A stretch of 32,000 nt of DNA from Cylindrospermopsis raciborskii Cr2010 (GCF_003367075.2 NZ_CP065936.1:1260001-1292000); one strand, 5' to 3'; counted from the stretch's first letter, positions 3,487 to 22,391 are shown. Notes: generated by a model from the letters alone, not told the origin. A program made the numbers and translations.

Positions 3487-4932
3487 ATGAAAGTGGCAAT
3501 TTCTAACTTAGGCAATATTCAAAAAGCAGAAATCGAATTAAGTCCGTTCACAGTATTTATTGGTAGAAGTGGTACTGGTAAAAGTTGGACTGCTTATACA
3601 ATAGCTTCTATAGTGAGTAACTATGGTTTTAAGTCTTATCTACAAATATATGAGGACAAAATTAAACGGGAACAGTATAATTTAGAATATGATGTTTTGG
3701 AAGAAAGTATTCAGGAGTTTTTAGAATCGGGCAGTTGTCAGATAAATCTGGTCAACTTTGCACAGAAGTTTGCAGAAAAGTATGTTAATGATCTTGCTAA
3801 AATGTCCCCTAATTGGTTATCAAAATTTCTGGGAACATCCAGGCTAAATTTTAATAATCTGGAAGTTAAATTTTCTATTAATGAATTAAAACAAGACTTA
3901 GTAACCAGAATCAGGCAAATTTCATTTCAGCAAGAGATGAACTATGGGAACCAAGGGTTGAAAGTTTTTAAGCAACAGGATGAAGAAGAGATATATTTTT
4001 ATCAGGTTTACGAGGGTAATAGAGATAGTTTAAAAGATAGCTTAAAACTTCCTCCATTACTAATCAGAGACTTATTTTTAAAAACTATACTGGGAATAAT
4101 CCATGAATGTTTCTATGCTGATGTTCATATCTTTCCCACTGAAAGAACAGCATATATAGGATTTCCTTTTTCTGTGAATTTAAGCAAGCTGATGGAGCTA
4201 GAAATGGAGAAGACAATTTCACCAGAGGAACAAAAACCTATCATGGAAAACCTCATGAAATTCAAAAGATCAAAAAGATCGAGAAGTGGTATTATTGACA
4301 GTCTAACATCTGTCATAGCAAGTGCTGTAATAAAAACAGATCAAGAGAGAGATGAAGAAGCAGAAAAAGACCCACAGATAAAAAAATATATCGACTTGGC
4401 GAATTTTTTACAAGAAAATATTCTGTCTGGCCATGTTAAGTTTAATTCATCACCATTGGTAAATGAAATTATTTTTGAGCCAATCCCAGACGTGAAATTA
4501 GAAATGCACATTACCTCATCTATGATTAAAGAATTGACACCTCTGTACTTGTGCTTACGTTACTTGGCAAAACCTAATGAATTATTAGTGATTGATGAAC
4601 CGGAAATGAATTTACATCCTGCAGCACAGGTGGAAATTACCGAGTTTTTGGCTATGCTGGTGAATGCAGGAATTAAAGTCCTAATTACCACTCACAGTCC
4701 CTATATAGTCAATCATATCTCTAATTTAATTAAAGCTGCCAACTATGAGAACAAAGATACCATAAAAGAAAAATTTTATTTGGAAAGAACCGATGCTTTT
4801 ATTGCACAGAAAAATGTTTCAATATATTTATTTGAAGATGGAACAGCCAAAAACATATTGCATGAAAATGGGCAAATAGACTGGGATACTTTTGCCGATG
4901 TTTCTGACGATGTCGGTCATATTTTGTTCTAG
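3487..4932 (+). CDS. ABC/SMC-type (AAA_15/AAA_21-like) ATPase with no fused nuclease domain
   Basis: 481 aa. Walker A is FIGRSGTGKS (codons 3562-3585). Walker B is LLVIDEPEMNLHP (from 4582). An H-loop ITTHSPY and a long helical insert lie between the two lobes. This architecture resembles the ATPases of Septu, PARIS and Gabija-type systems. Confidence 0.8.
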   Translation: MKVAISNLGNIQKAEIELSPFTVFIGRSGTGKSWTAYTIASIVSNYGFKSYLQIYEDKIKREQYNLEYDVLEESIQEFLESGSCQINLVNFAQKFAEKYVNDLAKMSPNWLSKFLGTSRLNFNNLEVKFSINELKQDLVTRIRQISFQQEMNYGNQGLKVFKQQDEEEIYFYQVYEGNRDSLKDSLKLPPLLIRDLFLKTILGIIHECFYADVHIFPTERTAYIGFPFSVNLSKLMELEMEKTISPEEQKPIMENLMKFKRSKRSRSGIIDSLTSVIASAVIKTDQERDEEAEKDPQIKKYIDLANFLQENILSGHVKFNSSPLVNEIIFEPIPDVKLEMHITSSMIKELTPLYLCLRYLAKPNELLVIDEPEMNLHPAAQVEITEFLAMLVNAGIKVLITTHSPYIVNHISNLIKAANYENKDTIKEKFYLERTDAFIAQKNVSIYLFEDGTAKNILHENGQIDWDTFADVSDDVGHILF

Positions 4933-4980: not shown

Positions 4981-5523
4981 ATGCTTTTTGACTATTTACT
5001 ATTATCAGGTTGTTTACTGCCAAATAGATATAGCTATTCAGAAAATGGAGTTAAGATAGAATTGCAACCCCAGAGTGGCGAGTTAATTTTGTTGTTTCAT
5101 ATAGATGATCAATCAAATAGAGATTGTAAATTCAGAAGAGTTTTGGAATTGGATAATCAGGGTATGAAAATGTGTGATTTGATAGTATTTTACGCTAAGG
5201 ATTCAACAAGAAATATATGTTTTATAGAATTAAAAGGTAGAGATATTGAAACCGCAATACAGCAGATAAATAATACATACAAGTACTTTCATGCCAAGCT
5301 AAATCAATCCAATGCATGTAATCTAGTGCCAGAGGTTAATACCAAAGCTTGTATTGTATCCAGAGCTTGTGTGCCAATAAAACCCCTAGATTCCTATACA
5401 TCATATAAAGAATTGAAATATAACTTTGGAAAGGAAAACATTTCTATTAGTAAGTCTTCAAGTTTAGATAGGTTTTTACGAGGTTTAAATTATGAACCTA
5501 AAGGTAAAAAAAATAGGAAATAA
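4981..5523 (+). CDS. Hypothetical protein, possible PD-(D/E)xK-fold nuclease
   Basis: 180 aa, 48 nt downstream of the ATPase on the same strand. It carries D66 (5176-5178) followed by a beta-strand-like ICFIELKG with E83-x-K85 (5227-5235). The spacing fits the D..(D/E)xK restriction-endonuclease core. The fold is inferred, not verified. Confidence 0.55.
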   Translation: MLFDYLLLSGCLLPNRYSYSENGVKIELQPQSGELILLFHIDDQSNRDCKFRRVLELDNQGMKMCDLIVFYAKDSTRNICFIELKGRDIETAIQQINNTYKYFHAKLNQSNACNLVPEVNTKACIVSRACVPIKPLDSYTSYKELKYNFGKENISISKSSSLDRFLRGLNYEPKGKKNRK

Positions 5524-7842: not shown

Positions 7843-8072
7843 AGGGGAATTCCAGGATTTATTTTAAATTTTATTAACCAAGTATATTTAAAAAGTAAAG
7901 TAATACAAATGACACTAAAACTAGTAATTAACGAAGGAACTGCGAAGGTCAAGAAAAAACGCTGGAATGCCTATTATTTCGTCGGGAACCTCGCAGCCTT
8001 GTGGGGTAAGGGTTTCAGCCATTATTTTGAGGGTAGTGGAGGTGAAAAAGAGAGAAATTTTGCTGACCTTCG

Positions 8073-8112
8073 CAAAGTGGGTCTAGACACCAGTCAGGGC
8101 AAGGGCTTAAAA
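8073..8112 (+). repeat. Leader box, array-proximal copy
   Basis: CAAAGTGGGTCTAGACACCAGTCAGGGCAAGGGCTTAAAA ends 7 nt before repeat 1. It contains the palindrome GTCTAGAC. Confidence 0.8.
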
Positions 8113-8119
8113 TGGAGGG

Positions 8120-10012
8120 ACCCGCTTCCCTCTGGGAAGTGGAATCAATGGAAACTTTCGGCATAAGTTGGCGATACGATGGGTATGTACCCTCACCCGC
8201 TTCCCTCTGGGAAGTGGAATCAATGGAAACCCAATTACTTTTTTTCCATGGGGAACGGTGCAAGACTAACCCGCTTCCCTCTGGGAAGTGGAATCAATGG
8301 AAACATCGAAGTTTAGTTGATCAGAGAGCAACCAAACGTGGACTCCACCAACCCGCTTCCCTCTGGGAAGTGGAATCAATGGAAACAAGACTTCGACTTC
8401 AACGAAACGGAACTTTCGTCCCTTGGACCCGCTTCCCTCTGGGAAGTGGAATCAATGGAAACGCTTAACAATTTGTGGACACAGTTTAGGTGGGGCTTTA
8501 ACCCGCTTCCCTCTGGGAAGTGGAATCAATGGAAACCGAAATAACAAGCTCTTCTTTTTTGCTAAACATAACCCCAAACCCGCTTCCCTCTGGGAAGTGG
8601 AATCAATGGAAACCTTAACACAGACCAGACTAGACTTGACTTGACTTGACAACCCGCTTCCCTCTGGGAAGTGGAATCAATGGAAACTTCAAATAGAATG
8701 TCTCTCAGTCCTGCATCTAATAAACCCGCTTCCCTCTGGGAAGTGGAATCAATGGAAACTTATTTACTACACCACTATAAAAGTGGTGGTGAAAACACCC
8801 GCTTCCCTCTGGGAAGTGGAATCAATGGAAACATAAAAAAACCACATCAGAAATTTGTTTTTGCGTCAACCCGCTTCCCTCTGGGAAGTGGAATCAATGG
8901 AAACAAAAAATTTGTCAACTACTCGTATACTGAAAATTACCCGCTTCCCTCTGGGAAGTGGAATCAATGGAAACTATTTTTTAAACTTTATTATGGAAAG
9001 GATCAGTTAGCACCCGCTTCCCTCTGGGAAGTGGAATCAATGGAAACTTTAGTTCCAGCAAAGTATGTTAGGGAACTAGTAAGCGACCCGCTTCCCTCTG
9101 GGAAGTGGAATCAATGGAAACCACCCCTACCCCTTGCTTTACCTCTTACCCTTATTTTTGACCCGCTTCCCTCTGGGAAGTGGAATCAATGGAAACTTCC
9201 CACTTTTGGGTGGGGGCCCGGTAAGTTTGTGTCACCCGCTTCCCTCTGGGAAGTGGAATCAATGGAAACAGTGATATTACAGATACATAAATTGTAGAAG
9301 CGGTTGACCCGCTTCCCTCTGGGAAGTGGAATCAATGGAAACCCCTACGGAAACTACAGGTACATAAGGACAATAGAAACCCGCTTCCCTCTGGGAAGTG
9401 GAATCAATGGAAACTTTCCTCTGCACCCGCAAGAAAGAGAAAGGAGAAAGAACCCGCTTCCCTCTGGGAAGTGGAATCAATGGAAACTCCATAGCCTTAA
9501 TCTCCTGTTAAATTCAACTTACAACCCGCTTCCCTCTGGGAAGTGGAATCAATGGAAACTTGTTTCCAGGGTACGCTCAAACTGATTACCTTTAACCCGC
9601 TTCCCTCTGGGAAGTGGAATCAATGGAAACTTCATGAACAAACAGTAAACCAGGAGTGGTTTGCTAAATTAGAAGAGGACCCGCTTCCCTCTGGGAAGTG
9701 GAATCAATGGAAACAGGTTCAGAGCGGCCTTCTTTAAGTTCTTTTAAAGCTACCCGCTTCCCTCTGGGAAGTGGAATCAATGGAAACGTGACAACCCTCT
9801 TGAGGGATGTCGGGATTGGGAGGCAGTACCCGCTTCCCTCTGGGAAGTGGAATCAATGGAAACAAAAGTCATTAATCCTGAAGACGCTAATTTACTAAAT
9901 ACCCGCTTCCCTCTGGGAAGTGGAATCAATGGAAACTCAGCATATGACTGAGTCGTATACTGACTCAGGTCAAAAAACCCGCTTCCCTCTGGGAAGTGGA
10001 ATCAATGGAAAC
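8120..10012 (+). CRISPR. CRISPR array with 26 identical 36-nt repeats and 25 spacers (34-48 nt); no cas genes in the window
   Basis: The repeat is ACCCGCTTCCCTCTGGGAAGTGGAATCAATGGAAAC, counted by hand at 8120, 8195, 8269, 8351, 8427, 8501, 8578, 8652, 8724, 8797, 8869, 8939, 9012, 9086, 9161, 9234, 9307, 9379, 9452, 9524, 9595, 9679, 9752, 9828, 9901 and 9977. An internal CTTCCC/GGGAAG hairpin is present. The 3' end ATGGAAAC resembles the 8-nt Cas6-type crRNA tag, and the A+T-rich leader lies upstream, so the array is read on the + strand. Confidence 0.97.
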
Positions 10013-10068
10013 TTTATAGGGATAGGAGTAATATATCCCAAATTGGCGTTGCATATTTGCGGGATGAA

Positions 10069-10515
10069 TCAACTAAACGCGGGTATTACTTCATACTTTA
10101 AATAGTGAAGTAATAATTTAATTGAATACCTAAGCATATCTACAGATTTTGAATAGCATAGCGTTTTTCTATGTAGTCGCGCTAAGTAGTGACGTAAACG
10201 TGTATTTTCACCCTCTACCCTAGTCATATATGTTTTGCTCACAATATGATCCTCTGGCTGAATAAAACTCGGATAAACCCTCCACCCATCAGTAACATAA
10301 AAAAAGCATTGCCAGAGTTTAACGATGTCCCACAAAGGTTGAAATGCTTGTGAGCTGTGGTCTCCCACAACCCAAGCCAGGATATTTTTACGGAAGTGAT
10401 TTACTGCTGTCCACAACCATATTTTGTTTTTTTTTGATCCCACAAAGGTCTCCAACTCATCAAGCTCACCTACCAAGGGTGTTTCCTGGTGGAGCATCTG
10501 GAAGTATGGAACCAA
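10069..10515 (-). CDS. IS1-family transposase catalytic part (InsB-like)
   Basis: ELDELETFVGSKKNKIWLWTAVN...YVTDGWRVY...TRVEGENTRLRHYLARLHRKTLCYSKS is typical of IS1 DDE transposases. It lies in the +1 frame relative to the InsA-like ORF. Confidence 0.85.
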   Translation of the reverse strand: MVPYFQMLHQETPLVGELDELETFVGSKKNKIWLWTAVNHFRKNILAWVVGDHSSQAFQPLWDIVKLWQCFFYVTDGWRVYPSFIQPEDHIVSKTYMTRVEGENTRLRHYLARLHRKTLCYSKSVDMLRYSIKLLLHYLKYEVIPAFS

Positions 10516-10756
10516 TTTGTTTTAGCCAGTAAATAATAGTTGTATGATGAACGCCTTTATCGCGTTCAATTGCTCTAAATCCCATACCGTTAACATAAGA
10601 GCGCAGGCAACTTTGTTTAACTTCTTCTGAATAGCCTTTAGGTGGACTATAGACATCGATAAATTGACGACCACAATCAACACAAATGTGATTTTGTTTA
10701 CCTCGACGTTTGCCATTCTTTCTGATTTTGGAAGACCCGCAGTTTGGACAATGCAC
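10466..10756 (-). CDS. IS1-family InsA-like Zn-finger/HTH protein
   Basis: It starts CPNCGSSKIRKNGKRRGKQNHICVDCGRQF, followed by an HTH (GMGFRAIERDKGVHHTTIIYWLKQ). The start codon is GTG. Confidence 0.85.
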   Translation of the reverse strand: MHCPNCGSSKIRKNGKRRGKQNHICVDCGRQFIDVYSPPKGYSEEVKQSCLRSYVNGMGFRAIERDKGVHHTTIIYWLKQIGSILPDAPPGNTLGR

Positions 10757-10795
10757 AGTAGATTACCTCAATTCATACCTCTATTATGCAACGCC

Positions 10796-13116
10796 TATGG
10801 GCCCACACGGTTGTTTGTCCCCATTGTCAGTCTGTTATTCCTTTAAGTCCTAATTGGTGGTTAAGTAAAACTAGTAATTATGGTGGTAAAGGACAAGCAC
10901 GAAAAGTGACTAGTGATTGGTATGCAGTAAAACCGATTGGTAATGGTGAGAATAAGCGGGTTGATTTTGAATTAATAAGGGGAAAAAAGGGGAAGGGGAC
11001 GACGATTGCAACAGATGATGGGGAATATGATCCGGATACTACAACTACTATTGGAAGGGGGGTGGGTAAGTGTGTTAATTGTGGGAATATAATTGAGGAT
11101 GATTTTATTAAAAGGCAAGCTCAAGGTGAAGGTTTAGGCTATCAATTATATGCGGTAGCTTATAAAAAGGGAAAGGGAAGTCTGGAGTTTAGAATACCAA
11201 ATGATTTAGATATTATGGGGGTGAAAAAAGCTGAAAATTACATAGAACATGAAATTGAAGACTGGAAGATTAAAGGATTTTTTCCGGATGTAGAAGTGAC
11301 AGATGGTCAAGAAACTCATAGGTTATTTGCCATGGGTATTAATGATTGGAGTAAGTTTTTTAATCCCAGGCAACTGGTGACGCTAGTAACATATTTAGAA
11401 ATTATAAATGAAGCGAAAAATCTGATTCAATCTGAATATGAATGGGAGAAATCACAAGCTATATCAACTTATTTGGCTTTGGTTTTGGATAGATGTGTTG
11501 ATGAAAACTGTAGATTAGGACGTTGGAATCCCCCCAGAGCAGGTTCTGAAGGCGCATCATCCCAACATGCACTTAACTTGATGTGGAATTATCCAGAAAG
11601 AGCTGGTGATGGTCAATTGTGGCGATCATGTGCTGATGTTTTTGCCTCAGACTATAAAAGTCTTTGTTCATTATTAGGAAAAAATGTGGGAAAGACAGAA
11701 AAGTATGATATTCCCATAGATAAGAAATCAATTCAAATAGAGTCAGCATCAGCGGATAACTTAACACATATTGCTGATAAATCAGTACATGCAATAATTA
11801 CCGACCCTCCTTATTATTCAACCATTCAATATGCGGAACTAGCAGACTTTTTCTATGTGTGGCTAAAACGCAGTCTAGGAGATATATTCCCCGAACTTTT
11901 CTATCTGGAACTAACAGATAAAGAAAGAGAAGCTGTCGCTAATCCTTCCCGGTTTAGGAATATGGGAATATCCCCAGAAATCCTAGCGAATCAAGACTAT
12001 GAGGCAAAAATGTCCATGGCTTTTGCTGAATACCACCGGGTTTTGCGTGATGATGGAGTGATGACTGTTCAATTCAATCATAAAGATTCTGGTGCTTGGG
12101 ATATTTTAGCCAAGTCTCTGATGGATGCTGGTTTTGAAATTACAGCTTCCTGGGCGGTTAGTACAGAAAATCCTCAAAATCTCCACCAGGCTCAAAAAAA
12201 TGCGGTTTCTAGCACCGTTCTATTAGTGTGTCGTAAACGTTATCCCCATGCTGAACAAGGTTGGTGGGATGATGTGCGTCTGGAATTACGTAATACTATC
12301 TTGAGTAAAGCTCCAGAAATTGAACGCTCCCTAACTGCAGATTCTAGACCTGCACCGGATAGGGTGGAAGACCCCCGTCAAAGAATTAAGCCTCCGGGTA
12401 TTGATTTATGTTTGACAGCTTATGGTAGTGCTTTAAGTGTGTTTACCCGTTATAGTTCTATATTGGATAGTACAGGAATTAAAGTAGAGCCTAAAGCAGC
12501 TTTTGAAGAAGTGCGTCAAGCTATAGTATCATACCGATTAGAAAGGTTGTTGGCGGGGAAGGATTTTCATGGGGTGGATACTTTGACTCAATGGTATATT
12601 CTGGCTTGGGATACTTTTGAAGCGCGAGAATTTCCTTTTGATGAAGCTAGACAATTGGCTTTGGCTGTGGGGGGTTTTGATGTTTCTGATTTGGTGAAAA
12701 AATATAAGTTGTTGGATTCTGCTAGTGGTTTTTGTAAGCTGTTAACTCCAGAACAAAGGTTGAAGAAACGGGCTTTTTCTGTAGTAGATAGGGAGTTTTC
12801 TGGTGTGAATTTGGTAGATGGAATTCATGCTATAATTTGCATTTATCAAATAGAACAAAAAATAGAGTTTGTCAGAAGGTTTTTAAAAAATACTGAGTTG
12901 GTGAGTATGGATGCTTTTATGAAAACTTTTGAGTTGGTTTTGAAGGTGATTCCTCAGATAAAGGATGAAAGAAAACGAATTATAGAGGAGAAGGTGTTAT
13001 TGGATTTATGGTTGGCTATGGATGAGATAAAGGCGAAGGTGTCTTATGAACAAATGGAGTTGCCATTTAATCTATCTGGAACAAGTGATGGGCCAACTCA
13101 AATACCTCTATTTTAG
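10796..13116 (+). pseudogene. DUF1156/COG1743-type Zn-ribbon DNA methyltransferase, 5'-truncated by IS1
   Basis: The reading frame begins inside the IS1 terminal repeat (ATG 10786). Native sequence starts at the Zn-ribbon (CPHC...CVNCG). The DPPY catalytic motif lies at 11803-11814 (AIITDPPYYSTIQYAELADFFYVW). The N-terminal DUF1156 and SAM-binding (motif I) region expected upstream of the ribbon is absent. Confidence 0.8.
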
Positions 13117-13211
13117 GTGTGATGGAGGTTTTTAAAAACTGTTTTGGTCTGTGGTTGGAGCTATGGGTTATTTTTTTGGGGGAGATCTATTTATAAAAGG
13201 GTTTAGGATTT

Positions 13212-15203
13212 GTGAAAAGTCTACGGAATAAGTCTTGGAAAATCAGTTATTCTAGCAATGGTGACAATACAATTGCTGATTTCTATATTCCTGCTCTATC
13301 TGCTGCTGTTGAATATGATAGAAAGTCGGGTTTTTTTAGTAGTTACATACTGAGTAGGGTGGCTAGGGGTTTGGGAACAATGGTTGATAATGGGGGTAAA
13401 ATGCGTCTGATTATGGGATGTGAGTTTACTTCACAAGATTTGGAAGCTATCCAAAAAGGATATTCCTTGCGTGACGCTTTATGGGAGCGTTTGGATGCTA
13501 GTTTTACTCCCCCAGAAAATTTCGCTCAGTTAAAACACTTAGAAATTCTCAGTTGGTTAATTGCTAATGAATGTCTGGATATAAAAATAGCTGTTCCTCT
13601 CAAACAAAATGGTTTACCTGATGTAGAACAGTTAGATTCCAAACATATTTTTCATGAGAAGGTGGGGATTTTTACTGATATTAATGGTGATAAATTGGTG
13701 TTTAATGGGTCGAATAATGAGTCTATTGGGGGATGGGAAAAAAATGTTGAGTCGTTTCATGTGTATTGTTCTTGGGAGGGAGGAAGGGATCTAGATAGAG
13801 TGGAGGAGGAGGTTTGTCGTTTTGAGCAACTTTGGTTTGATATTTGCCCTAATGTGCGGATCTTTGATATTCCGGATGCGGTGCGAGAAAGATTACTGCG
13901 CTATACTCCTATTTGCCAACCTACTGGTGACCTAGATTTTGATTGTGTTCCAGAGGATGACTTTTCACAGATGCTACACCACCAAAAAGATATGGTAGGT
14001 GTGAGTGAAGCACGGGTTGAACAAACTCCATTTATTACGGAAGAGGAAAAACAGTGTTTCAGGGAGTTAACAAATATAGACCAAAATGCAGGGTGTTTAG
14101 ATTACTGTCTCAAATCTATACCTATTTCTCCCTGGCCACATCAAATTAAAATATTACGCCGGGTGGGAGAAACCTTTCCTACAAGTTATTTAATTGCGGA
14201 TGAGGTGGGGTTGGGTAAAACTATTGAAACAGGGTTGATTATACGTTATCTATTGTTGACAAAGAAAATAGAACGTGTCCTAATTTTGAGTCCTGCTAGT
14301 GTACAGTCACAATGGCAAAAAGCATTGAGGGAGAATTTTAATCTACATTTTTGGAGTTACACCCAAAGTTCCTTAACTGTTGAAAGTGAATTTTTAATGA
14401 AAAGGAGTGAAAGGGGTAAACAGGGGGTTTGTGGGAATCCTTGGAATGCTGAGAATTTAATACTTGCTTCTTCTCATTTAGTGAGAAGAGCTGACCGAAT
14501 AGAGCAACTTTTGGCAGCTGATTGTTGGGATCTGGTGATTCTGGATGAAGCTCATCATGCTAGAAGAAAAAGTCCCCAAAATAGAAAGGAAACTCCTAAT
14601 CTGCTTTTAAGGTTGATGCAAAGGTTAAGAGAAAAGACTCAAGCCTTAATATTGCTGTCTGCTACTCCTATGCAAATTGATGTGATAGAGATTTTTGATT
14701 TACTGAATCTTTTAGGATTAGAGGGTCATTGGAGTTACAGTGATAATTTTTGTTATTATTTCGAAAGTCTGAATCAATGTTCAGCTCTGTCCATTAAACC
14801 AGAGTTAATAGATTTTTGGCAGCTGATGTGTGGGGACTATTTTCAAAAAGGGGGAAAACCTTGCCCTAATTTACAGCAATTACTTTTACAACAAGATAAA
14901 CTGTTAGCTTATAGAATTCAGGATACTTGGCACAAATCCCAGAAAATATTGAATTATAAAAAAATCCTGGGGGATGAGTCGTTTTTGAATGGTTCTCGGC
15001 AATTTTTAACTACTAATACTCCTTTAAAGGATTTAATGTTTCGTCATACTCGTGAGACTTTAAGGCAATATTATAAAAGAGGTTTATTAAAACGGGATAT
15101 ACCTAAAAGAATCGTGCAAGATAATGCTATTGCCCTGGAACCATTCAGTGAAATTCCCCTGTATATAGCTGTTAGTGATTACGCTCGTCATTTTTATAAG
15201 TTA
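13212..15203 (+). pseudogene. PLD-nuclease / SNF2-family helicase fusion, 3'-truncated at the IS630 junction
   Basis: The N-terminal PLD-like motif is HEKVGIFTD..GSNNES (HEK at 13653-13661). SNF2 motif I is ADEVGLGKT (about 14.2 kb). Motif II is LDEAHHAR (14544-14558) and motif III is LLSATPMQ. Helicase C-terminal lobe motifs IV-VI are missing. The ORF then runs 7 codons into the IS and stops at 15224. Confidence 0.8.
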
Positions 15204-16251
15204 CAGCAATTTTCATGTAGTTAAACTACAAAATAAGATAAGCTATAATAAGGGTAATAAACTAAAATAGAGTAGAAGTACTGTCAAATTATATGCCAAA
15301 ACCTTATTCAATAGATTTGCGTAATCGCGTGATTGTAGCATGGGTTGCTCAAGAGGGATCTCAACGCCAGTTGGCAGAAAGATTCAAGGTCAGCTTATCA
15401 TTTGTGAGAAATTTAGTACGTCGTTATCGTGAAACTGGGCAAGTTGAGCCAAAGCAATGTGGAGGATATGAAAAGCCTGTAATTGCAGGCCAATATTTAA
15501 ACATGATCAAGTCTTGGCTGGATGAGAAAAATGATTTACTACTTTCAGAATTGTGCGATCGCCTGAGAGAAACGACGGGCACTAGTGTTAGTATCACAAC
15601 CATGCATCGAGCCTTAGAAAAGTTGGGTCTACGTCATAAAAAAAAAGTCTAAATGCCAGTGAACAGGAGACTCCACGTGTTCAAGAATTAAGGCATGATT
15701 ATCGTCGTTGGGTAGATACAGTTGATATTAGAAATTTAGTGTTTTTAGATGAATCGGGGATAAATTTAGGGATGTCAAGGTTGTTTGCCAGAAGCCAAGA
15801 TGGACAAAGAGCAATTGGTAGCGTACCAGGAAACAAGGGCAAAAATATTTCTCTGATTGGGGCTTTAAATATGGATGGAATTCTGGCAGCAATGACTGTA
15901 GAGGGAAGCACAAATACAGAAGTATTTCTCACTTATGTAAATCAGGTTTTAGTACCTCAATTATGGAAAGGGGCTATTGTTGTTATGGATAATTTAAAGG
16001 TTCATTATGCCGAGCGCGTGAGATTGTCAATTGAATCAGTCGGTGCAAAAGTTAAGTTTTTACCCCCCTATTCTCCAGACTTATCTCCGATAGAATTGTG
16101 TTGGTCAAAATTAAAGCAATTTCTCCGTAGTCGGGAGGCACGAACATTAGAAGCCCTAAATGAGGCCATGACAAGTGCAGTAAATTATATTACAGCAGAG
16201 GATGCGCTTAATTGGTTCAATCATTGTGGTTTATTTACATGAAAACTGCTG
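15204..16251 (+). mobile_element. IS630-family insertion sequence (1048 bp) flanked by TA
   Basis: The terminal inverted repeats TTACAGCAATTTTCATGTAGTTAAAC (15201-15226) and GTTTATTTACATGAAAACTGCTGTAA (16229-16254) match at 23 of 26 positions. A TA dinucleotide lies on both flanks (15202-15203 and 16252-16253), which is the IS630/Tc1 target. Confidence 0.9.
15293..16242 (+). CDS. IS630-family transposase, two ORFs joined by a -1 frameshift at an A9G tract
   Basis: ORF1 (15293-15652) is the HTH part. ORF2 (listed from 15739) contains LVFLDESG...VVMDNLKVH...PYSPDLSPIELCW (DDE). Reading the -1 frame from A AAA AAA AAG (15638-15647) gives a continuous ..HKKKKSLNASEQETPRVQELRHDYRRWVDTVDIRNLVFLDESG. 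Confidence 0.9.
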
Positions 16252-19200
16252 TAAGTACCATATTTAAGACCTGCGCTCCTCGGGAGGAAATTTTAGCAGG
16301 GGAACTGTCGTTAGATCTATTCGCTGCTAAGTTGGAATCGGTAGTAAAAGGTACAGCACCTAAAGTATATAATGACCCGAAAACCTTTTTTGAAAATACT
16401 TTTGCTACTGATGGCTTAAAAAATTTAATTACCGAAGTATTTGGTAGACTAAGTGGAAATATGGTAGGTTCACCTATCATTCGATTAGAGACTAGCTTTG
16501 GTGGTGGTAAAACCCATGATGAAATAGCTTTATGGCACATTGCTAAACATGGTAGAAAGATTCCCGGTATAGAGAGATTTACTGATAATATTGAAATTAT
16601 ACCAAGTTATGCGGTTAAGGCTGGGGCTATTGCCTGTCAAGACTTAGAACCTGCGGATGGGGTGTTTCATAGGGATACGGGAATTAGGACTTATACTCTG
16701 TGGGGAGAAATTGCTTACCAATTGGGGGGAGTAGAAGGTTATAGCTTGCTCAAGGGTGCGGATGAAATGAGAGTTAGTCCTGGAACGGATGTGTTGAGAA
16801 GAATTATTCAGGATGCTCCTACGGTGATTATTCTGGATGAAGTAGCAATGTATTTGAGAAGGGCAAAAGGAATAACTGTAGGTGAGAGTGATTTGGCTAA
16901 ACAGGTTATAGCTTTTTTGTTTGCGCTCATGGATTTAGCTGCTTCTACTAATAATATCGTATTGGTATATACTCTGGCTTCCGCTAGTGACAGTTTTGGA
17001 GAGGAAACGAGGGAGGTGAGGGAAGCTCTTTCTATTTCTGCTAGACAGGAAAGAATTATCAAACCTAGTACGGATGTGGAGATATATAATATAGTTAAGC
17101 AAAGAATGTTTAGTAGTATATGTTCTAATGCGGCAAGGGATGCTGGGAGGGAATATATGCAAGTTTATAAGAACAGTCGATTAGATCTACCTAGTGGATG
17201 TAAGGATAGTAGTTATGCTGAAAGTATTGAACAGAGCTATCCATTTCATCCTGAACTATTTAATCTACTGACTAAGAAGATAGCATCCATTCCTAATTTC
17301 CAGCGCACGAGGGGAGCATTACGGTTATTGGCTATAGTTATTCGCTATCTTTGGCAAGAATTGGAAGATTTAGCCGAGAATTCAGGTATAATGGGTGAAA
17401 ATTCACCTTTTTGGATTCCTATGATCCATCCCCATCATATTCCCCTGGGTATGGAGGAAGAAATCACCAGTGATTTAACTTCTCGTTTGGATAGACCACT
17501 GATGCGAATACCTATCCAAGCAGATATTTACAATCCAGATGGTCGCGAAGCACATAGTCAAATACAGGATAAGGAATGGAGTGCAGCAGACAAACCACCT
17601 TTTACTAGCTGGGTTACCAGAACTATTTTTCTTAATTCTATCAACCAAGGGACTGCAGCAGGTATTCGGGTTTCGGAACTGAATTTATGTTTGCTCACAC
17701 CTGGTATGGATATTGGTTTTGTACAAACGGTTTTAGAGAGATTAGGAGAGGTTGCTTGGTATTTAGATTATGACCAATTTACATCTACTGCTAGGTTTAA
17801 AGAAGAACCATCACTCAATAAGGTGATTGCTCAAGAAAAGGAGCAAGTAACTACTACAGAAACGAAGGAACGTTTAAGAAGGGAACGGGATACAATTTTT
17901 GCAGATCATTGTTTTAAACTGGTTTCTGGTCCGGTGAATCCCAGTGATGTGGATGATGTGGCGGATTATATAGCTTTATGTGTAATAGATTTTGATGAAG
18001 CAACTATTTCTGATACTACCCAAGTTGCGCCCACTTTAGTGGAAAAAGTTTTTGAAAACACGGGAGAATCGGGAAAATTCCGGATTTATAAAAATCGATT
18101 ATTGTTCCTGGTGGCTAATAAGCAGGAGTTAGAACGTAGTTTGGATAACATGAGGGAATATATTGCTATAGAAAATATAATGAGGTCTGCTGATAAGTTA
18201 CAGGATTTATCCGAGGGTCAACGGAAAAAGCTCAAGGAAAGGGAAGGCAATTTTAAGTTAAATGTAAGGGTGTCAATTGGCAATACCTACCGTCACCTAT
18301 TTTACCCTGAGAGCGATCGGGTGAAAGCACCAAAGGGATTAATGCACTATACTTTGCCTGCGCAGGATTCAGGTGATGCTAAAAAGAAGCAGCAGGAAGT
18401 GTTGCTGAAGAAATTAAGAGATTGTGGAAAGATTAGAATGGAGGATGCAGCTGCTTATGCACCTAGTTATATAGTACAAAAAGTGTGGCCAGCGGGGATT
18501 GATCATTGGAAAACTAAGGAAATGAAAGAAGCGTTTTTCAAGGATGTGAGTTTGAAGATGTTTTTAGACGGAGAAATAAGTAAGTTGAGGGAAACCATTC
18601 GCAATGGGATTTTGGATGGTTCCTGGGATATGAAAATTGGAGAGAAGGTGTTTATTAAAGCTGAAAACTTGAAAGTTCCTGATTCTATAGAGTTTTCGGA
18701 GGGAGTGGAGTTGTATCGTCCGGGGATTTTAGAACTGCCAAAACCAAGAGAGATTGAAATAAGTGCGCAGGTGATGTTTAGTAAGGATATGAAAAAACCT
18801 GTTCGAGTGGGGTGGAGAGCATCGGGAGGGTTGAAGGTACAAATGTATGAAAATGGAAAGATTATTGATAAGGAGTTTCGACCCCGGGATGAATATAGCA
18901 CTGAGATTGGGGAAACCACAATTTTTAAAATAGTTGTGGATTATGGGAATGGGGAAATTTTGGAGAAGGAAACCACAGCGTTTATAGGAGGAGGTGGTAA
19001 TGAAGGTGAGAGGTATGGTGATAGCACGAGAAAGACTACAGTTGGAGGATTTAGTGCAGCAGAATCAGGAAGTATTTTTGCGGTCAAACCATTAATATTT
19101 AGCTATGCAGGAACGGTAAATAGTAGCTTTGTGAAACTGAGTGATTTTATTAAGGACAATAAACCAGCGGGAATTCAAGAAATAGAAATTTCTGTGACAG

Positions 19201-19565
19201 AACCCATGGACTATAGGAAGTTATTTACAGCTATTCCTCTAGTAGCCAAATTACCTCTGTATATCAACCATATAGCCACAATTAGCTTAGAGGAGCAGTT
19301 TGTGAGATTGGAGTACCAAGGACCAGAGAAAGGATTTAAAGTTTTTCAGGGAATAATGCTTAGTTTTTTAAATAATCCCCTGGTGAAAGCAGATCTACTA
19401 TTGAAATTGGAGTTTAAATTTTTGTCACCAATTATGTATGGTAGAAGGGGGAGAAATAAGAGATCTTCAAAAATCGCTGGAACGGAATCCAGTAGACAAT
19501 TTGAACTTAGTTGCCAAAGTTACCTATTAAGAGTTTTCACATGCAGGAATTTCAGTTGCGAATAG
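16239..19565 (+). CDS. DUF499/COG1483-type ATPase; start codon supplied by the IS630 terminus, probable frameshift near the 3' end
   Basis: APREEILAGELSLDLFAAKL is a typical DUF499 N-terminus. A P-loop ETSFGGGKTH lies at about 16500-16517 and Walker B is VIILDEVAMYL. The ATG at 16239 lies inside the IS630 inverted repeat. The last ~40 residues are R/S/C-rich (GRRGRNKRSSKIAG..CRNFSCE). The +1 frame from 19441 reads a protein-like VEGGEIRDLQKSLERNPVDNLNLVAKVTY* ending at 19530. Confidence 0.8.
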   Translation: MKTAVSTIFKTCAPREEILAGELSLDLFAAKLESVVKGTAPKVYNDPKTFFENTFATDGLKNLITEVFGRLSGNMVGSPIIRLETSFGGGKTHDEIALWHIAKHGRKIPGIERFTDNIEIIPSYAVKAGAIACQDLEPADGVFHRDTGIRTYTLWGEIAYQLGGVEGYSLLKGADEMRVSPGTDVLRRIIQDAPTVIILDEVAMYLRRAKGITVGESDLAKQVIAFLFALMDLAASTNNIVLVYTLASASDSFGEETREVREALSISARQERIIKPSTDVEIYNIVKQRMFSSICSNAARDAGREYMQVYKNSRLDLPSGCKDSSYAESIEQSYPFHPELFNLLTKKIASIPNFQRTRGALRLLAIVIRYLWQELEDLAENSGIMGENSPFWIPMIHPHHIPLGMEEEITSDLTSRLDRPLMRIPIQADIYNPDGREAHSQIQDKEWSAADKPPFTSWVTRTIFLNSINQGTAAGIRVSELNLCLLTPGMDIGFVQTVLERLGEVAWYLDYDQFTSTARFKEEPSLNKVIAQEKEQVTTTETKERLRRERDTIFADHCFKLVSGPVNPSDVDDVADYIALCVIDFDEATISDTTQVAPTLVEKVFENTGESGKFRIYKNRLLFLVANKQELERSLDNMREYIAIENIMRSADKLQDLSEGQRKKLKEREGNFKLNVRVSIGNTYRHLFYPESDRVKAPKGLMHYTLPAQDSGDAKKKQQEVLLKKLRDCGKIRMEDAAAYAPSYIVQKVWPAGIDHWKTKEMKEAFFKDVSLKMFLDGEISKLRETIRNGILDGSWDMKIGEKVFIKAENLKVPDSIEFSEGVELYRPGILELPKPREIEISAQVMFSKDMKKPVRVGWRASGGLKVQMYENGKIIDKEFRPRDEYSTEIGETTIFKIVVDYGNGEILEKETTAFIGGGGNEGERYGDSTRKTTVGGFSAAESGSIFAVKPLIFSYAGTVNSSFVKLSDFIKDNKPAGIQEIEISVTEPMDYRKLFTAIPLVAKLPLYINHIATISLEEQFVRLEYQGPEKGFKVFQGIMLSFLNNPLVKADLLLKLEFKFLSPIMYGRRGRNKRSSKIAGTESSRQFELSCQSYLLRVFTCRNFSCE

Positions 19566-19969
19566 TGCCCACGGATAATAATAACTTTGCTGTTGAGTTA
19601 TATCAATGTGCCTATAAAAAAGCAGGAGAAAAGAAACGTCCTGCTGCTAAACGAATTGGCAGGTTAAAAAGTAGTATATTAGTACAGGTTCGGGAGATGG
19701 TTTATGATTGTTTGAAAGCGAATAACTACGATCCAAAGACTTTAACGCATAATAGGCAAGCTCATTATGTATTAAACGAGGAAACGGGAGTGAACCTAGC
19801 TTTATTATTTCAGACTGTACAACCGCTTTCAAAAGCAGAAAGAATAAGTAATATTGCCCAGGGAATACAAGCTATGAGTTATGAGGAATCTCATTATTGG
19901 TTTGCTAAAGTTAGTAATGGTAAACGCAGCCAAGCTTTAAGAGCAATTAGGGTTTTGTTGGGTGATTAG
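19541..19969 (+). CDS. Hypothetical small protein co-oriented with the DUF499 gene (system accessory?)
   Basis: 142 aa counted from the ATG at 19541 (the track starts at a TTG at 19511). The sequence looks like a real protein, with ..MSYEESHYWFAKVSNGKRSQALRAIRVLLGD at the C-terminus. I do not recognise a family. Confidence 0.55.
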   Translation: MQEFQLRIVPTDNNNFAVELYQCAYKKAGEKKRPAAKRIGRLKSSILVQVREMVYDCLKANNYDPKTLTHNRQAHYVLNEETGVNLALLFQTVQPLSKAERISNIAQGIQAMSYEESHYWFAKVSNGKRSQALRAIRVLLGD

Positions 19970-20025
19970 ATCCTCGAGCGATTGCTCAGCACTCCCTGCG
20001 GGAGCTCGCGCAGCACTCGCAACCT

Positions 20026-22222: not shown

Positions 22223-22313
22223 ATAATGGTAAATGATAAGTTTCCTGTCTATTGAAAATCCTCATAGAAAAAATTAGAATAAGTGGGTGGTTGGAATTAA
22301 ATATAAGATGAAC

Positions 22314-22346
22314 GTAGGTTGGGTTGAAGTATAAAACCCATCCTAC
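22314..22346 (+). repeat. Dispersed hairpin repeat copy
   Basis: In GTAGGTTGGGTTGAAGTATAAAACCCATCCTAC, 11 of 12 stem positions pair (GTAGGTTGGGTT with AACCCATCCTAC). Confidence 0.6.
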
Positions 22347-22391
22347 AAATAATTGTGCCTCCCTACTTATGGCAGATAAATAAACTTATCC

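Follow-up and report, generated by a model that had tools for sequence, protein, structure and literature searches.

We analyzed a 32,000-nucleotide stretch of DNA from Cylindrospermopsis raciborskii Cr2010 (GCF_003367075.2 NZ_CP065936.1:1260001-1292000), hereafter the window, in which four co-oriented genes at positions 10,796 to 19,969 encode a DUF1156 methylase, a PLD-SNF2 helicase-nuclease, a DUF499 ATPase and a 142-aa protein. This region is very probably a recently broken copy of a four-gene, restriction-modification (R-M)-like anti-phage or anti-plasmid system of the BREX-related (BR) kind that includes Hma, Gao_RL and MANTIS. As judged from the encoded proteins, the intact system is DUF499-centred and has the Type-2 (Gao_RL/MANTIS) BR architecture. 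The event itself is ordinary decay of a defence system mediated by insertion sequences (IS), and the system is a variant of a known, now mechanistically described kind. The feature beyond the ordinary is the small subunit, DUF7680, together with the Type-1-like affinities of the ATPase and methylase. Broken loci of this sort are routine, defence systems often being lost to insertion sequences, and the value of this one lies in its pointer to DUF7680, in a control pair of alleles and in a possible transposition scar.

The gene assignments come from an open reading frame (ORF) listing and profile searches. A sequence-only reading had placed the four genes correctly to the base and had described them as a Zn-ribbon DPPY methyltransferase of the DUF1156 type, a PLD nuclease fused to an SNF2 helicase, a DUF499-type ATPase and a small protein; the searches bear out all four descriptions and assign the small protein, which is intact, to Pfam DUF7680.

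Lesions in the three large genes

Domains were called with Pfam, PADLOC and NCBIfam profile searches, and breakpoints were placed by blastn and global alignment against an intact locus (L004) of Cylindrospermopsis curvispora (CP060822.1). The whole module in L004 shares 96–98.6% nucleotide identity with the window, and its four genes are intact and in the same order (957, 1062, 1092 and 142 aa). Scanning genome contigs with the ATPase gave three loci only; the intact loci came from a protein-database search. The two sequences align in three blocks (Table 1), and blastn with the intact locus found neither the lost 5′ end of the methylase nor the lost 3′ end of the helicase elsewhere in the window. 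All three kinds of damage named in the sequence-only reading match this comparison. Its account of decay thus stands for each large gene, but the causes had gone unseen: an IS1-associated deletion, an IS630-associated deletion and a 4-nt insertion.

Table 1 Features of the module, its surroundings and related loci (window coordinates unless a locus is named).
Feature	Position	Strand	Basis or remark
5′-truncated DUF1156 N6-adenine DNA methyltransferase (MtsC/HmaB homologue)	10796..13116	+	ORF 10786-13116, 776 aa
IS1-family insertion sequence	10045..10795	-	Pfam DDE_Tnp_IS1 E=5e-27 (ORF 10069-10515(-)), terminal inverted repeats
3′-cut PLD(HKD)-SNF2 helicase-nuclease (MtsD homologue)	13212..15206	+	Pfam, PADLOC, L004 comparison
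IS630/Tc1-mariner-family insertion sequence, 1046 bp	15207..16252	+	HTH_32/HTH_28, DDE_3 E=2e-36, inverted repeats, TA flanks
DUF499 AAA+ (ORC/Cdc6-type) ATPase (MtsA/HmaC homologue)	16239..19565	+	ORF 16212-19565; Pfam, PADLOC
4-nt insertion, frameshift	19433..19436	+	AATTATGG -> AATTATGTATGG, i.e. TA -> TA-TG-TA
DUF7680 protein, 142 aa, intact	19541..19969	+	Pfam DUF7680 E=5e-45
blastn block 1	10796-13123 = L004 4213-6519		96.2% identity
blastn block 2	13125-15203 = L004 6616-8700		96.3% identity
blastn block 3	16252-19971 = L004 10005-13720		98.6% identity
Orphan CRISPR array	8119-10013, leader ~7873-8118		26 identical 35-37-nt repeats (…CCCGCTTCCCTCTGGGAAGTGGAATCAATGGAAAC)
481-aa AAA_15/AAA_21 ATPase	3487-4932		PADLOC PD-T4-4_A E=9e-55
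180-aa ORF after PD-T4-4_A-like ATPase	4981-5523		no match in Pfam or PADLOC
Calothrix PCC 7507 methylase	L005 17864-18349		161-aa fragment
Thermocoleostomius sinensis methylase	L008 15247-18089		frameshift near codon 60
Scytonema HK-05 methylase	L009 14081-17081		split 405+599 aa
Methylase-helicase inserts	L007 15788-17584; L008 18091-19770; L009 17091-18432; L005 18569-21335		

The methylase matches PADLOC HmaB (E=4e-55) and DUF1156_MTase (E=6e-39), both only from profile position ~250–330 on, and its sequence shows two CxxC pairs and IITDPPYY. Relative to L004 it lacks the first 574 nt (191 codons). The intact 957-aa methylase carries DUF1156 at residues 16–64 (E=8e-10), the S-adenosylmethionine (SAM)-binding motif I DAFAGGGS at ~109–116, a Zn-ribbon insert and DPPY; DUF1156 and motif I both lie inside the lost codons, and the window copy retains the Zn-ribbon/target recognition domain (TRD), DPPY and the C-terminal domain. 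Homology to the intact copy begins exactly at 10796, and the start ATG of the ORF (10786) lies within a terminal repeat of the adjoining IS1 element.

The terminal inverted repeats of this element, GGCGTTGCATA.../...TATGCAACGCC, occupy 10045–10069 and 10771–10795, and a further ORF (10466–10756(-)) upstream of the DDE ORF is, by inference, in the InsA position. There is no target-site duplication. The flanks differ (cccaaatt / tatgggcc) and are unrelated, which marks a rearrangement junction instead of a simple insertion; one end of the element adjoins a 26-repeat CRISPR array and the other abuts the methylase remnant. An IS1-associated rearrangement has thus taken away the DUF1156 domain and the SAM-binding motif.

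Mismatches between the window and L004 methylases cluster in two ~200-nt patches, 10796–11000 and ~11500–11700 (alignment nt 0–200 and 700–900), both in the Zn-ribbon/TRD region; the rest of the gene is ~100% identical to the intact allele. This pattern suggests an allelic difference in target specificity, which may have arisen by recombinational exchange between strains. We read the patches as a possible specificity switch because of the TRD-swap experiment made with MANTIS.

In the helicase, 664–666 of 1062 codons remain, with the PLD domain and RecA lobe 1 (GLGKT, DEAH). The ORF (13212–15224, 670 aa) reads six codons into the IS630 element and stops at 15224; missing are the last ~397 codons, which encode RecA lobe 2 (Helicase_C) and the C-terminal domain. 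The window protein matches Pfam SNF2-rel_dom (E=1e-16) and ResIII, with Helicase_C absent in the Pfam search, and PADLOC PbeA (at the N-terminus), PLD_Helicase, DrmD and HmaA. The intact protein has Helicase_C at 766–881 along with PLDc_2, SNF2-rel_dom, PLD_Helicase (3e-73) and NCBIfam phospholipD_antiphage (366 bits). The window motif HEKVGIFTD...GSNNES aligns with HxK...GSxNES of the canonical Gao_RL PLD-helicase, and the intact helicase aligns end to end by BLASTP with that protein from an Acinetobacter plasmid (26% identity, E=3e-57).

The IS630 element, bounded by terminal inverted repeats CAGCAATTTTCATGTA / TACATGAAAACTGCTG, occupies a 1304-bp deletion. Missing from the window is L004 8701–10004, with the 3′ end of the helicase gene, the spacer after it and the opening ATGT of the ATPase gene. 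Each of the TA dinucleotides beside the element (15205-6 and 16253-4) traces back to its own TA site in the intact locus, the pattern expected of recombination between two copies or of IS-mediated adjacent deletion. This IS630-associated 1.3-kb deletion took away the second RecA lobe of the helicase. The transposase is split into two ORFs, 15293–15652 (HTH) and 15739–16242 (DDE_3), which a -1 shift on an A9 run (15636–15644) would join, reflecting either programmed frameshifting or a homopolymer indel.

The ATPase matches Pfam DUF499 (E=6e-36, above the gathering score), PADLOC HmaC (3e-102) and Gao_RL DUF499 (7e-42), retains Walker A (GGGKT) and Walker B (IILDE) motifs and is 98% identical to the 1092-aa C. 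curvispora protein (P0001). It is native from codon 3 (16255) onwards. The start ATG (16239) comes in frame from the IS630 right repeat, giving MKTAV-STIF for the native ML-STIF, and overlaps the transposase stop (ATGA). Since the IS1 and IS630 repeats supply the ATGs of the methylase and ATPase ORFs, IS-driven expression of the remnants is possible.

The remaining lesion, the 4-nt insertion, shifts the frame after ATPase residue 1063 and replaces the last 29 residues with 42 out-of-frame ones, and thereby disrupts the ATPase C-terminus. In the alignment with L004 no second indel falls inside the ATPase or DUF7680 gene, and removal of the insertion restores the frame. We consider it more likely than not that this is an ordinary replication-slippage event unrelated to transposition, in that the inserted bases are an exact tandem duplication of the neighbouring TATG. 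Short tandem duplications are a frequent class of indel, and to our knowledge IS630-family excision footprints have seldom been documented in bacterial genomes. Several observations nevertheless argue against slippage. In ISY100, a cyanobacterial IS630 relative, the cuts fall precisely at the 3′ ends but 2 nt in from the 5′ ends, and re-ligated donor backbones carry TA+2nt+TA (PMC2170065). For an element with CA...TG ends, rejoining of the flanks after excision would be expected to leave TACATA or TATGTA, and the observed TATGTA lies at a TA site. An element with such ends resides 3.2 kb away in the same gene, and no other indel interrupts the two genes over the 3.7 kb compared. The insertion may therefore be an excision footprint of the same resident IS630-type element, a reading of the junction that we offer with some doubt. 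The change of TA to TATGTA beside the element is a candidate footprint of excision in vivo by a bacterial relative of Tc1/mariner.

The dN/dS values relative to L004 are 0.29 for the methylase, 0.12 for the helicase, 0.44 for the ATPase and 0.07 for DUF7680. These values, with near-identical DNA outside the TRD patches, rule out prolonged pseudogene drift, and thus the lesions are recent.

DUF7680 and the kind of system

BR systems have been divided into Type-1 (Hma), with three genes and a helicase bearing TUDOR and a C-terminal PD-(D/E)XK nuclease; Type-2, with an N-terminal HKD nuclease on the helicase and a standalone DUF3780; and Type-3, with PglZ and iSTAND (PMC12839542). Type-2, known as Gao_RL or Gao_29, was renamed MANTIS in a September 2026 preprint, after MtsA-MtsB-MtsC-MtsD of Pseudomonas aeruginosa (bioRxiv 10.64898/2026.09.23.753747). 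The locus has the general BR components, a DUF499 ORC/Cdc6 ATPase, a DUF1156 methylase with a nested TRD (in the intact orthologue) and a co-conserved Swi2/Snf2 helicase, and it shares with Type-2 an N-terminal HKD/PLD endonuclease in place of TUDOR (PLDc_2, PbeA/PLD_Helicase, HxK...GSxNES). Gao_RL models match all three large proteins in PADLOC and NCBIfam. It departs from Type-2 in lacking a standalone DUF3780 gene, the small protein being DUF7680. The sequence-only reading was therefore right to suspect a methylation-linked defence system overlapping with named ones; the relative is BR Type-2/MANTIS, not MADS. Its remark that the mechanism is essentially unknown is out of date for MANTIS, the closest characterized relative, described in 2026.

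DUF7680 is the only undamaged gene of the module. It occupies the operon position of MtsB (DUF3780) and directly follows the DUF499 ATPase in all eight loci compared, from cyanobacteria, an alphaproteobacterium and a haloarchaeon. A lack of co-conservation, which the sequence-only reading had said would speak against its proposal, did not occur: the four genes are conserved as a unit in 8/8 related loci across three phyla. Conservation is unusually high in both small-protein families, DUF7680 being 71–97% identical across cyanobacterial orders and DUF3780 73–90% from Proteobacteria to Bacillus. A full HMMER profile search gave 393 representative clusters, and the name DUF7680 does not occur in the searchable literature.

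We compared DUF7680 with DUF3780 by structure prediction and profile alignment. The AlphaFold2 model of DUF7680 (pLDDT 92) comprises a four-stranded sheet with packed helices in the order beta3-alpha2-beta-alpha4 (EEEHHEHHHH), which is the element order of a low-confidence DUF3780 model. This order may also fit the published description of MtsB (DUF3780), a 4-stranded sheet and five helices (PMC12839542), and ASCH-domain fusions occur in both families. In an hhalign comparison the C-terminal 71 columns are colinear, with MSxEEAYYWFsK opposite LRPEERWWLYSK (score 19.4, probability 2%). The 142-aa protein has no DUF3780 match at E<=10 in Pfam and PADLOC or at E<=0.01 in NCBIfam; genuine DUF3780 proteins score 249–359 bits. 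A Foldseek search of the Protein Data Bank (PDB) with the DUF7680 fold returned nothing below E=0.09, and profile searches of PDB sequences gave chance-level matches only and no MtsB entry, neither family having a solved structure in the PDB copy searched. Taken together, DUF7680 is probably homologous or functionally equivalent to MtsB. Of the steps in the MANTIS mechanism, the role of MtsB is understood least, and a clade of MANTIS-like systems uses the unstudied DUF7680 in its place.

The large subunits show a second affinity. The intact ATPase and methylase score 341 and 257 bits against PADLOC HmaC and HmaB, compared with 146 and 194 bits against the Gao_RL models. In an all-against-all BLASTP, the DUF7680-linked proteins of cyanobacteria, Aminobacter and Haloterrigena group together (365–423 bits), and their ATPases and methylases are nearer to Type-1 loci (Nostoc and Bradyrhizobium plasmids; 170–330 bits) than to canonical Gao_RL (77–154 bits). 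We tentatively propose, as quite possible, that the DUF7680-linked systems form a distinct BREX-related lineage that combines a Type-1/Hma-like ATPase-methylase chassis with a MANTIS-type PLD motor-nuclease, and in which DUF7680 would be a compact, extremely conserved MtsB analogue that activates methylation. Such DUF7680-linked systems are widespread in cyanobacteria and also found on alphaproteobacterial and haloarchaeal plasmids. If the proposal is correct, the prediction of the MANTIS authors that an "alternative protein" takes the role of MtsB in other BR systems would apply to DUF7680.

Several points weigh against a MANTIS-like assignment and the mechanism transferred with it. All three large proteins, taken as intact orthologues, miss the NCBIfam Gao_RL equivalog cut-offs by a wide margin (DUF499_antiphage 193/1200, DUF1156_antiphage 256/1000 and phospholipD_antiphage 366/1100 bits). 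The ATPase and methylase are only ~23–24% identical to those of the Pseudomonas MANTIS system from which the mechanism is taken, and the nuclease activity of MtsD has not been reconstituted even for MANTIS (bioRxiv 10.64898/2026.09.23.753747). Homology of DUF7680 and DUF3780 is statistically not established, with an hhalign probability of 2% and 8/200 column-shuffled controls reaching the score, and the DUF3780 model has a pLDDT of 51, so that only secondary-structure order was compared. Finally, the genes for the ATPase and DUF7680 are close to intact and, from their sequences, could in principle keep some activity.

These points bear on the idea that the locus is a true Gao_RL/MANTIS equivalog with DUF7680 merely a divergent DUF3780. 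The four-gene content, the A-B-C-D order in most cyanobacteria, a PLD-helicase homologous end to end and a small protein with matching secondary-structure order and ASCH fusions would all fit this idea. We nonetheless regard it as rather unlikely, as the three cut-offs fail by 3- to 6-fold, DUF3780 profiles do not detect the small protein at the E-values given above, the profile-profile score barely exceeds that of shuffled controls, and the ATPase and methylase lie nearer to Type-1.

In MANTIS, MtsA (the DUF499 ATPase) loads MtsC (the methylase), and MtsB (DUF3780) stimulates methylation, an ATP-dependent reaction that leaves asymmetric 6-bp sites hemimethylated; for restriction all four proteins are required, the dimeric PLD-SF2 motor-nuclease MtsD carrying it out with a preference for inverted unmodified sites (bioRxiv 10.64898/2026.09.23.753747). 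By homology, the DUF499 AAA+ ATPase of the intact system would load the DUF1156 methylase onto a short asymmetric site, where a small dimeric co-factor, DUF7680 for MtsB, would stimulate ATP-dependent N6-adenine hemimethylation and so mark self DNA. Where foreign DNA is unmodified, this recognition complex would license the dimeric PLD-SNF2 motor-nuclease to translocate and cut. As read from its genes, none of this mechanism can operate in the window copy.

It has also to be asked whether the locus is entirely dead, or whether the DUF499-DUF7680 pair, expressed by IS630 read-through from the IS-supplied start, retains a function of its own. DUF7680 is intact with a dN/dS of 0.07, the ATPase keeps 1061/1092 native residues and its Walker motifs, the in-frame ATG at the IS630 right end overlaps the transposase stop, and Calothrix PCC 7507 has an intact pair beside a fragmentary methylase. 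Such retention is still improbable, as MANTIS methylation and restriction need MtsC, and restriction also MtsD, with no independent MtsA-MtsB role known. Moreover, most of the divergence behind the low dN/dS dates from a time when both copies still worked, and the frameshift removes the end of the ATPase C-terminal domain.

The sequence-only reading had taken the joint loss of modification and restriction to be expected once either is lost. This is half right. A complete mtsC deletion is non-toxic in MANTIS, and a methylation-dead, targeting-competent MtsC is toxic only with active MtsD (bioRxiv 10.64898/2026.09.23.753747). The knockout is harmless because restriction needs MtsC for targeting, and therefore the two genes can be lost in either order and the addiction logic of classical R-M systems does not strictly hold.

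Related loci and genomic context

The DUF499-DUF7680-DUF1156 methyltransferase-PLD/SNF2 unit was found in Cylindrospermum, Thermocoleostomius, Scytonema and Calothrix, on the Aminobacter plasmid pMET2, where it forms a tight operon, and on the Haloterrigena plasmid pHTS96. Gene order is A-B-C-D in most of these other cyanobacteria and on both plasmids and C-D-A-B in Cylindrospermopsis. In this small sample, the methylase is also disrupted in three of the five other cyanobacterial loci (Table 1) with the ATPase-DUF7680 pair intact, which is consistent with easy loss of the system through its methylase. No phase-variable or homopolymer tracts were present at the two methylase frameshift sites inspected in these loci, and the lesions look like ordinary mutations.

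Genes for Uma2-family endonucleases, toxin-antitoxin pairs and small ORFs lie between the methylase and helicase genes in other cyanobacteria. These inserts echo an "insertion hotspot" reported for hma operons. An interspersed repeat of ~91–98 nt with a MITE-like look occurs in the window (22280–22370) and in L004 (6518–6615 and 9870–9929) at 83–87% identity; it is present in both intergenic spacers of the C. curvispora BR operon and absent from the methylase-helicase spacer of the window.

The window looks like a small defence island, flanked by housekeeping genes and made up of a PD-T4-4_A-like ATPase, an orphan CRISPR array, IS1 and the broken BR module. The PD-T4-4_A-like ATPase and the 180-aa ORF after it may form a second defence system in the same island. 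The CRISPR array ends at the IS1 element, and the window contains no cas genes. C. curvispora has this leader and repeat as well, there downstream of the intact BR module (L004 14866–16625), and both outer flanks differ. Since the array position and outer flanks differ, the region has been rearranged between strains. The intact and broken alleles, nearly identical and carried by sister Cylindrospermopsis genomes, form a natural control pair for methylome comparison and, if the proposed DUF7680 lineage is real, the intact and IS-broken strains would be a natural knockout pair for the methylation motif.

Comparison with known systems

The IS630 element resembles ISY100 and the IS630-Tc1-mariner group in its TA target, ~17-bp terminal inverted repeats and HTH plus DDE_3 transposase, and the TA+2nt+TA donor junction predicted for excision matches the frameshift scar. 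It differs in having the transposase in two ORFs that need a -1 shift and in its position, which is the junction of a deletion and no simple insertion.

MADS, DISARM and classical BREX were rejected as assignments, their signature genes (mad1-8; DrmA/DrmB DUF1998; PglZ, BrxA/B/L) being absent from the window and the intact locus and their models giving generic methylase and SNF2 cross-matches only (mad2 E=2e-4; DrmD, BrxH). Type-3 BREX (BrxC, BrxXI/PglXI, BrxHII) has a homologous three-part core, in which an ATPase is joined by an N6-methylase that has a nested TRD and by an SNF2 helicase (PMC12839542); there are secondary PADLOC matches to PglXI and BrxHI/BrxHII models. In contrast to Type-3, there are no PglZ, BrxA or BrxF/iSTAND genes here, the helicase carries a fused nuclease, and the ATPase belongs to the DUF499 type, not to DUF6079/BrxC.

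Hma consists of the HmaA helicase-nuclease, HmaB methylase and HmaC ATPase (Payne et al. 2021 as cited in PMC11232893; PMC12839542). Both groups share a Swi2/Snf2 helicase core and often have unrelated defence or toxin-antitoxin genes inserted within the operon. That the locus is simply an Hma system is very improbable: HmaB and HmaC are the top PADLOC matches, well over Gao_RL, and BLASTP places the ATPase and methylase closer to Type-1 (170–330 bits) than to canonical Gao_RL (104–154 bits), but the nuclease is of the wrong type and position, the helicase beginning with an HKD/PLD domain where that of Hma has an N-terminal TUDOR and a C-terminal PD-(D/E)XK NOV_C (found in the Type-1 Nostoc plasmid control helicase and not in the intact 1062-aa helicase), and a fourth conserved gene is always present where Hma has three genes and no small fourth one.

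MANTIS differs from the module in several respects. Its small protein is DUF3780 (~195 aa), whereas DUF7680 here has 142 aa and no lysine-rich tail; the Cylindrospermopsis gene order is C-D-A-B; no gene for an MtsR-like repressor was seen; and the window copy is non-functional. In common are the four components, with a small accessory protein encoded right after the DUF499 ATPase, a DUF1156 N6-adenine methylase with a nested TRD/Zn-ribbon and DPPY, an N-terminal HKD/PLD nuclease fused to an SNF2-type SF2 ATPase and, in most cyanobacterial relatives, the A-B-C-D gene order of MANTIS itself.

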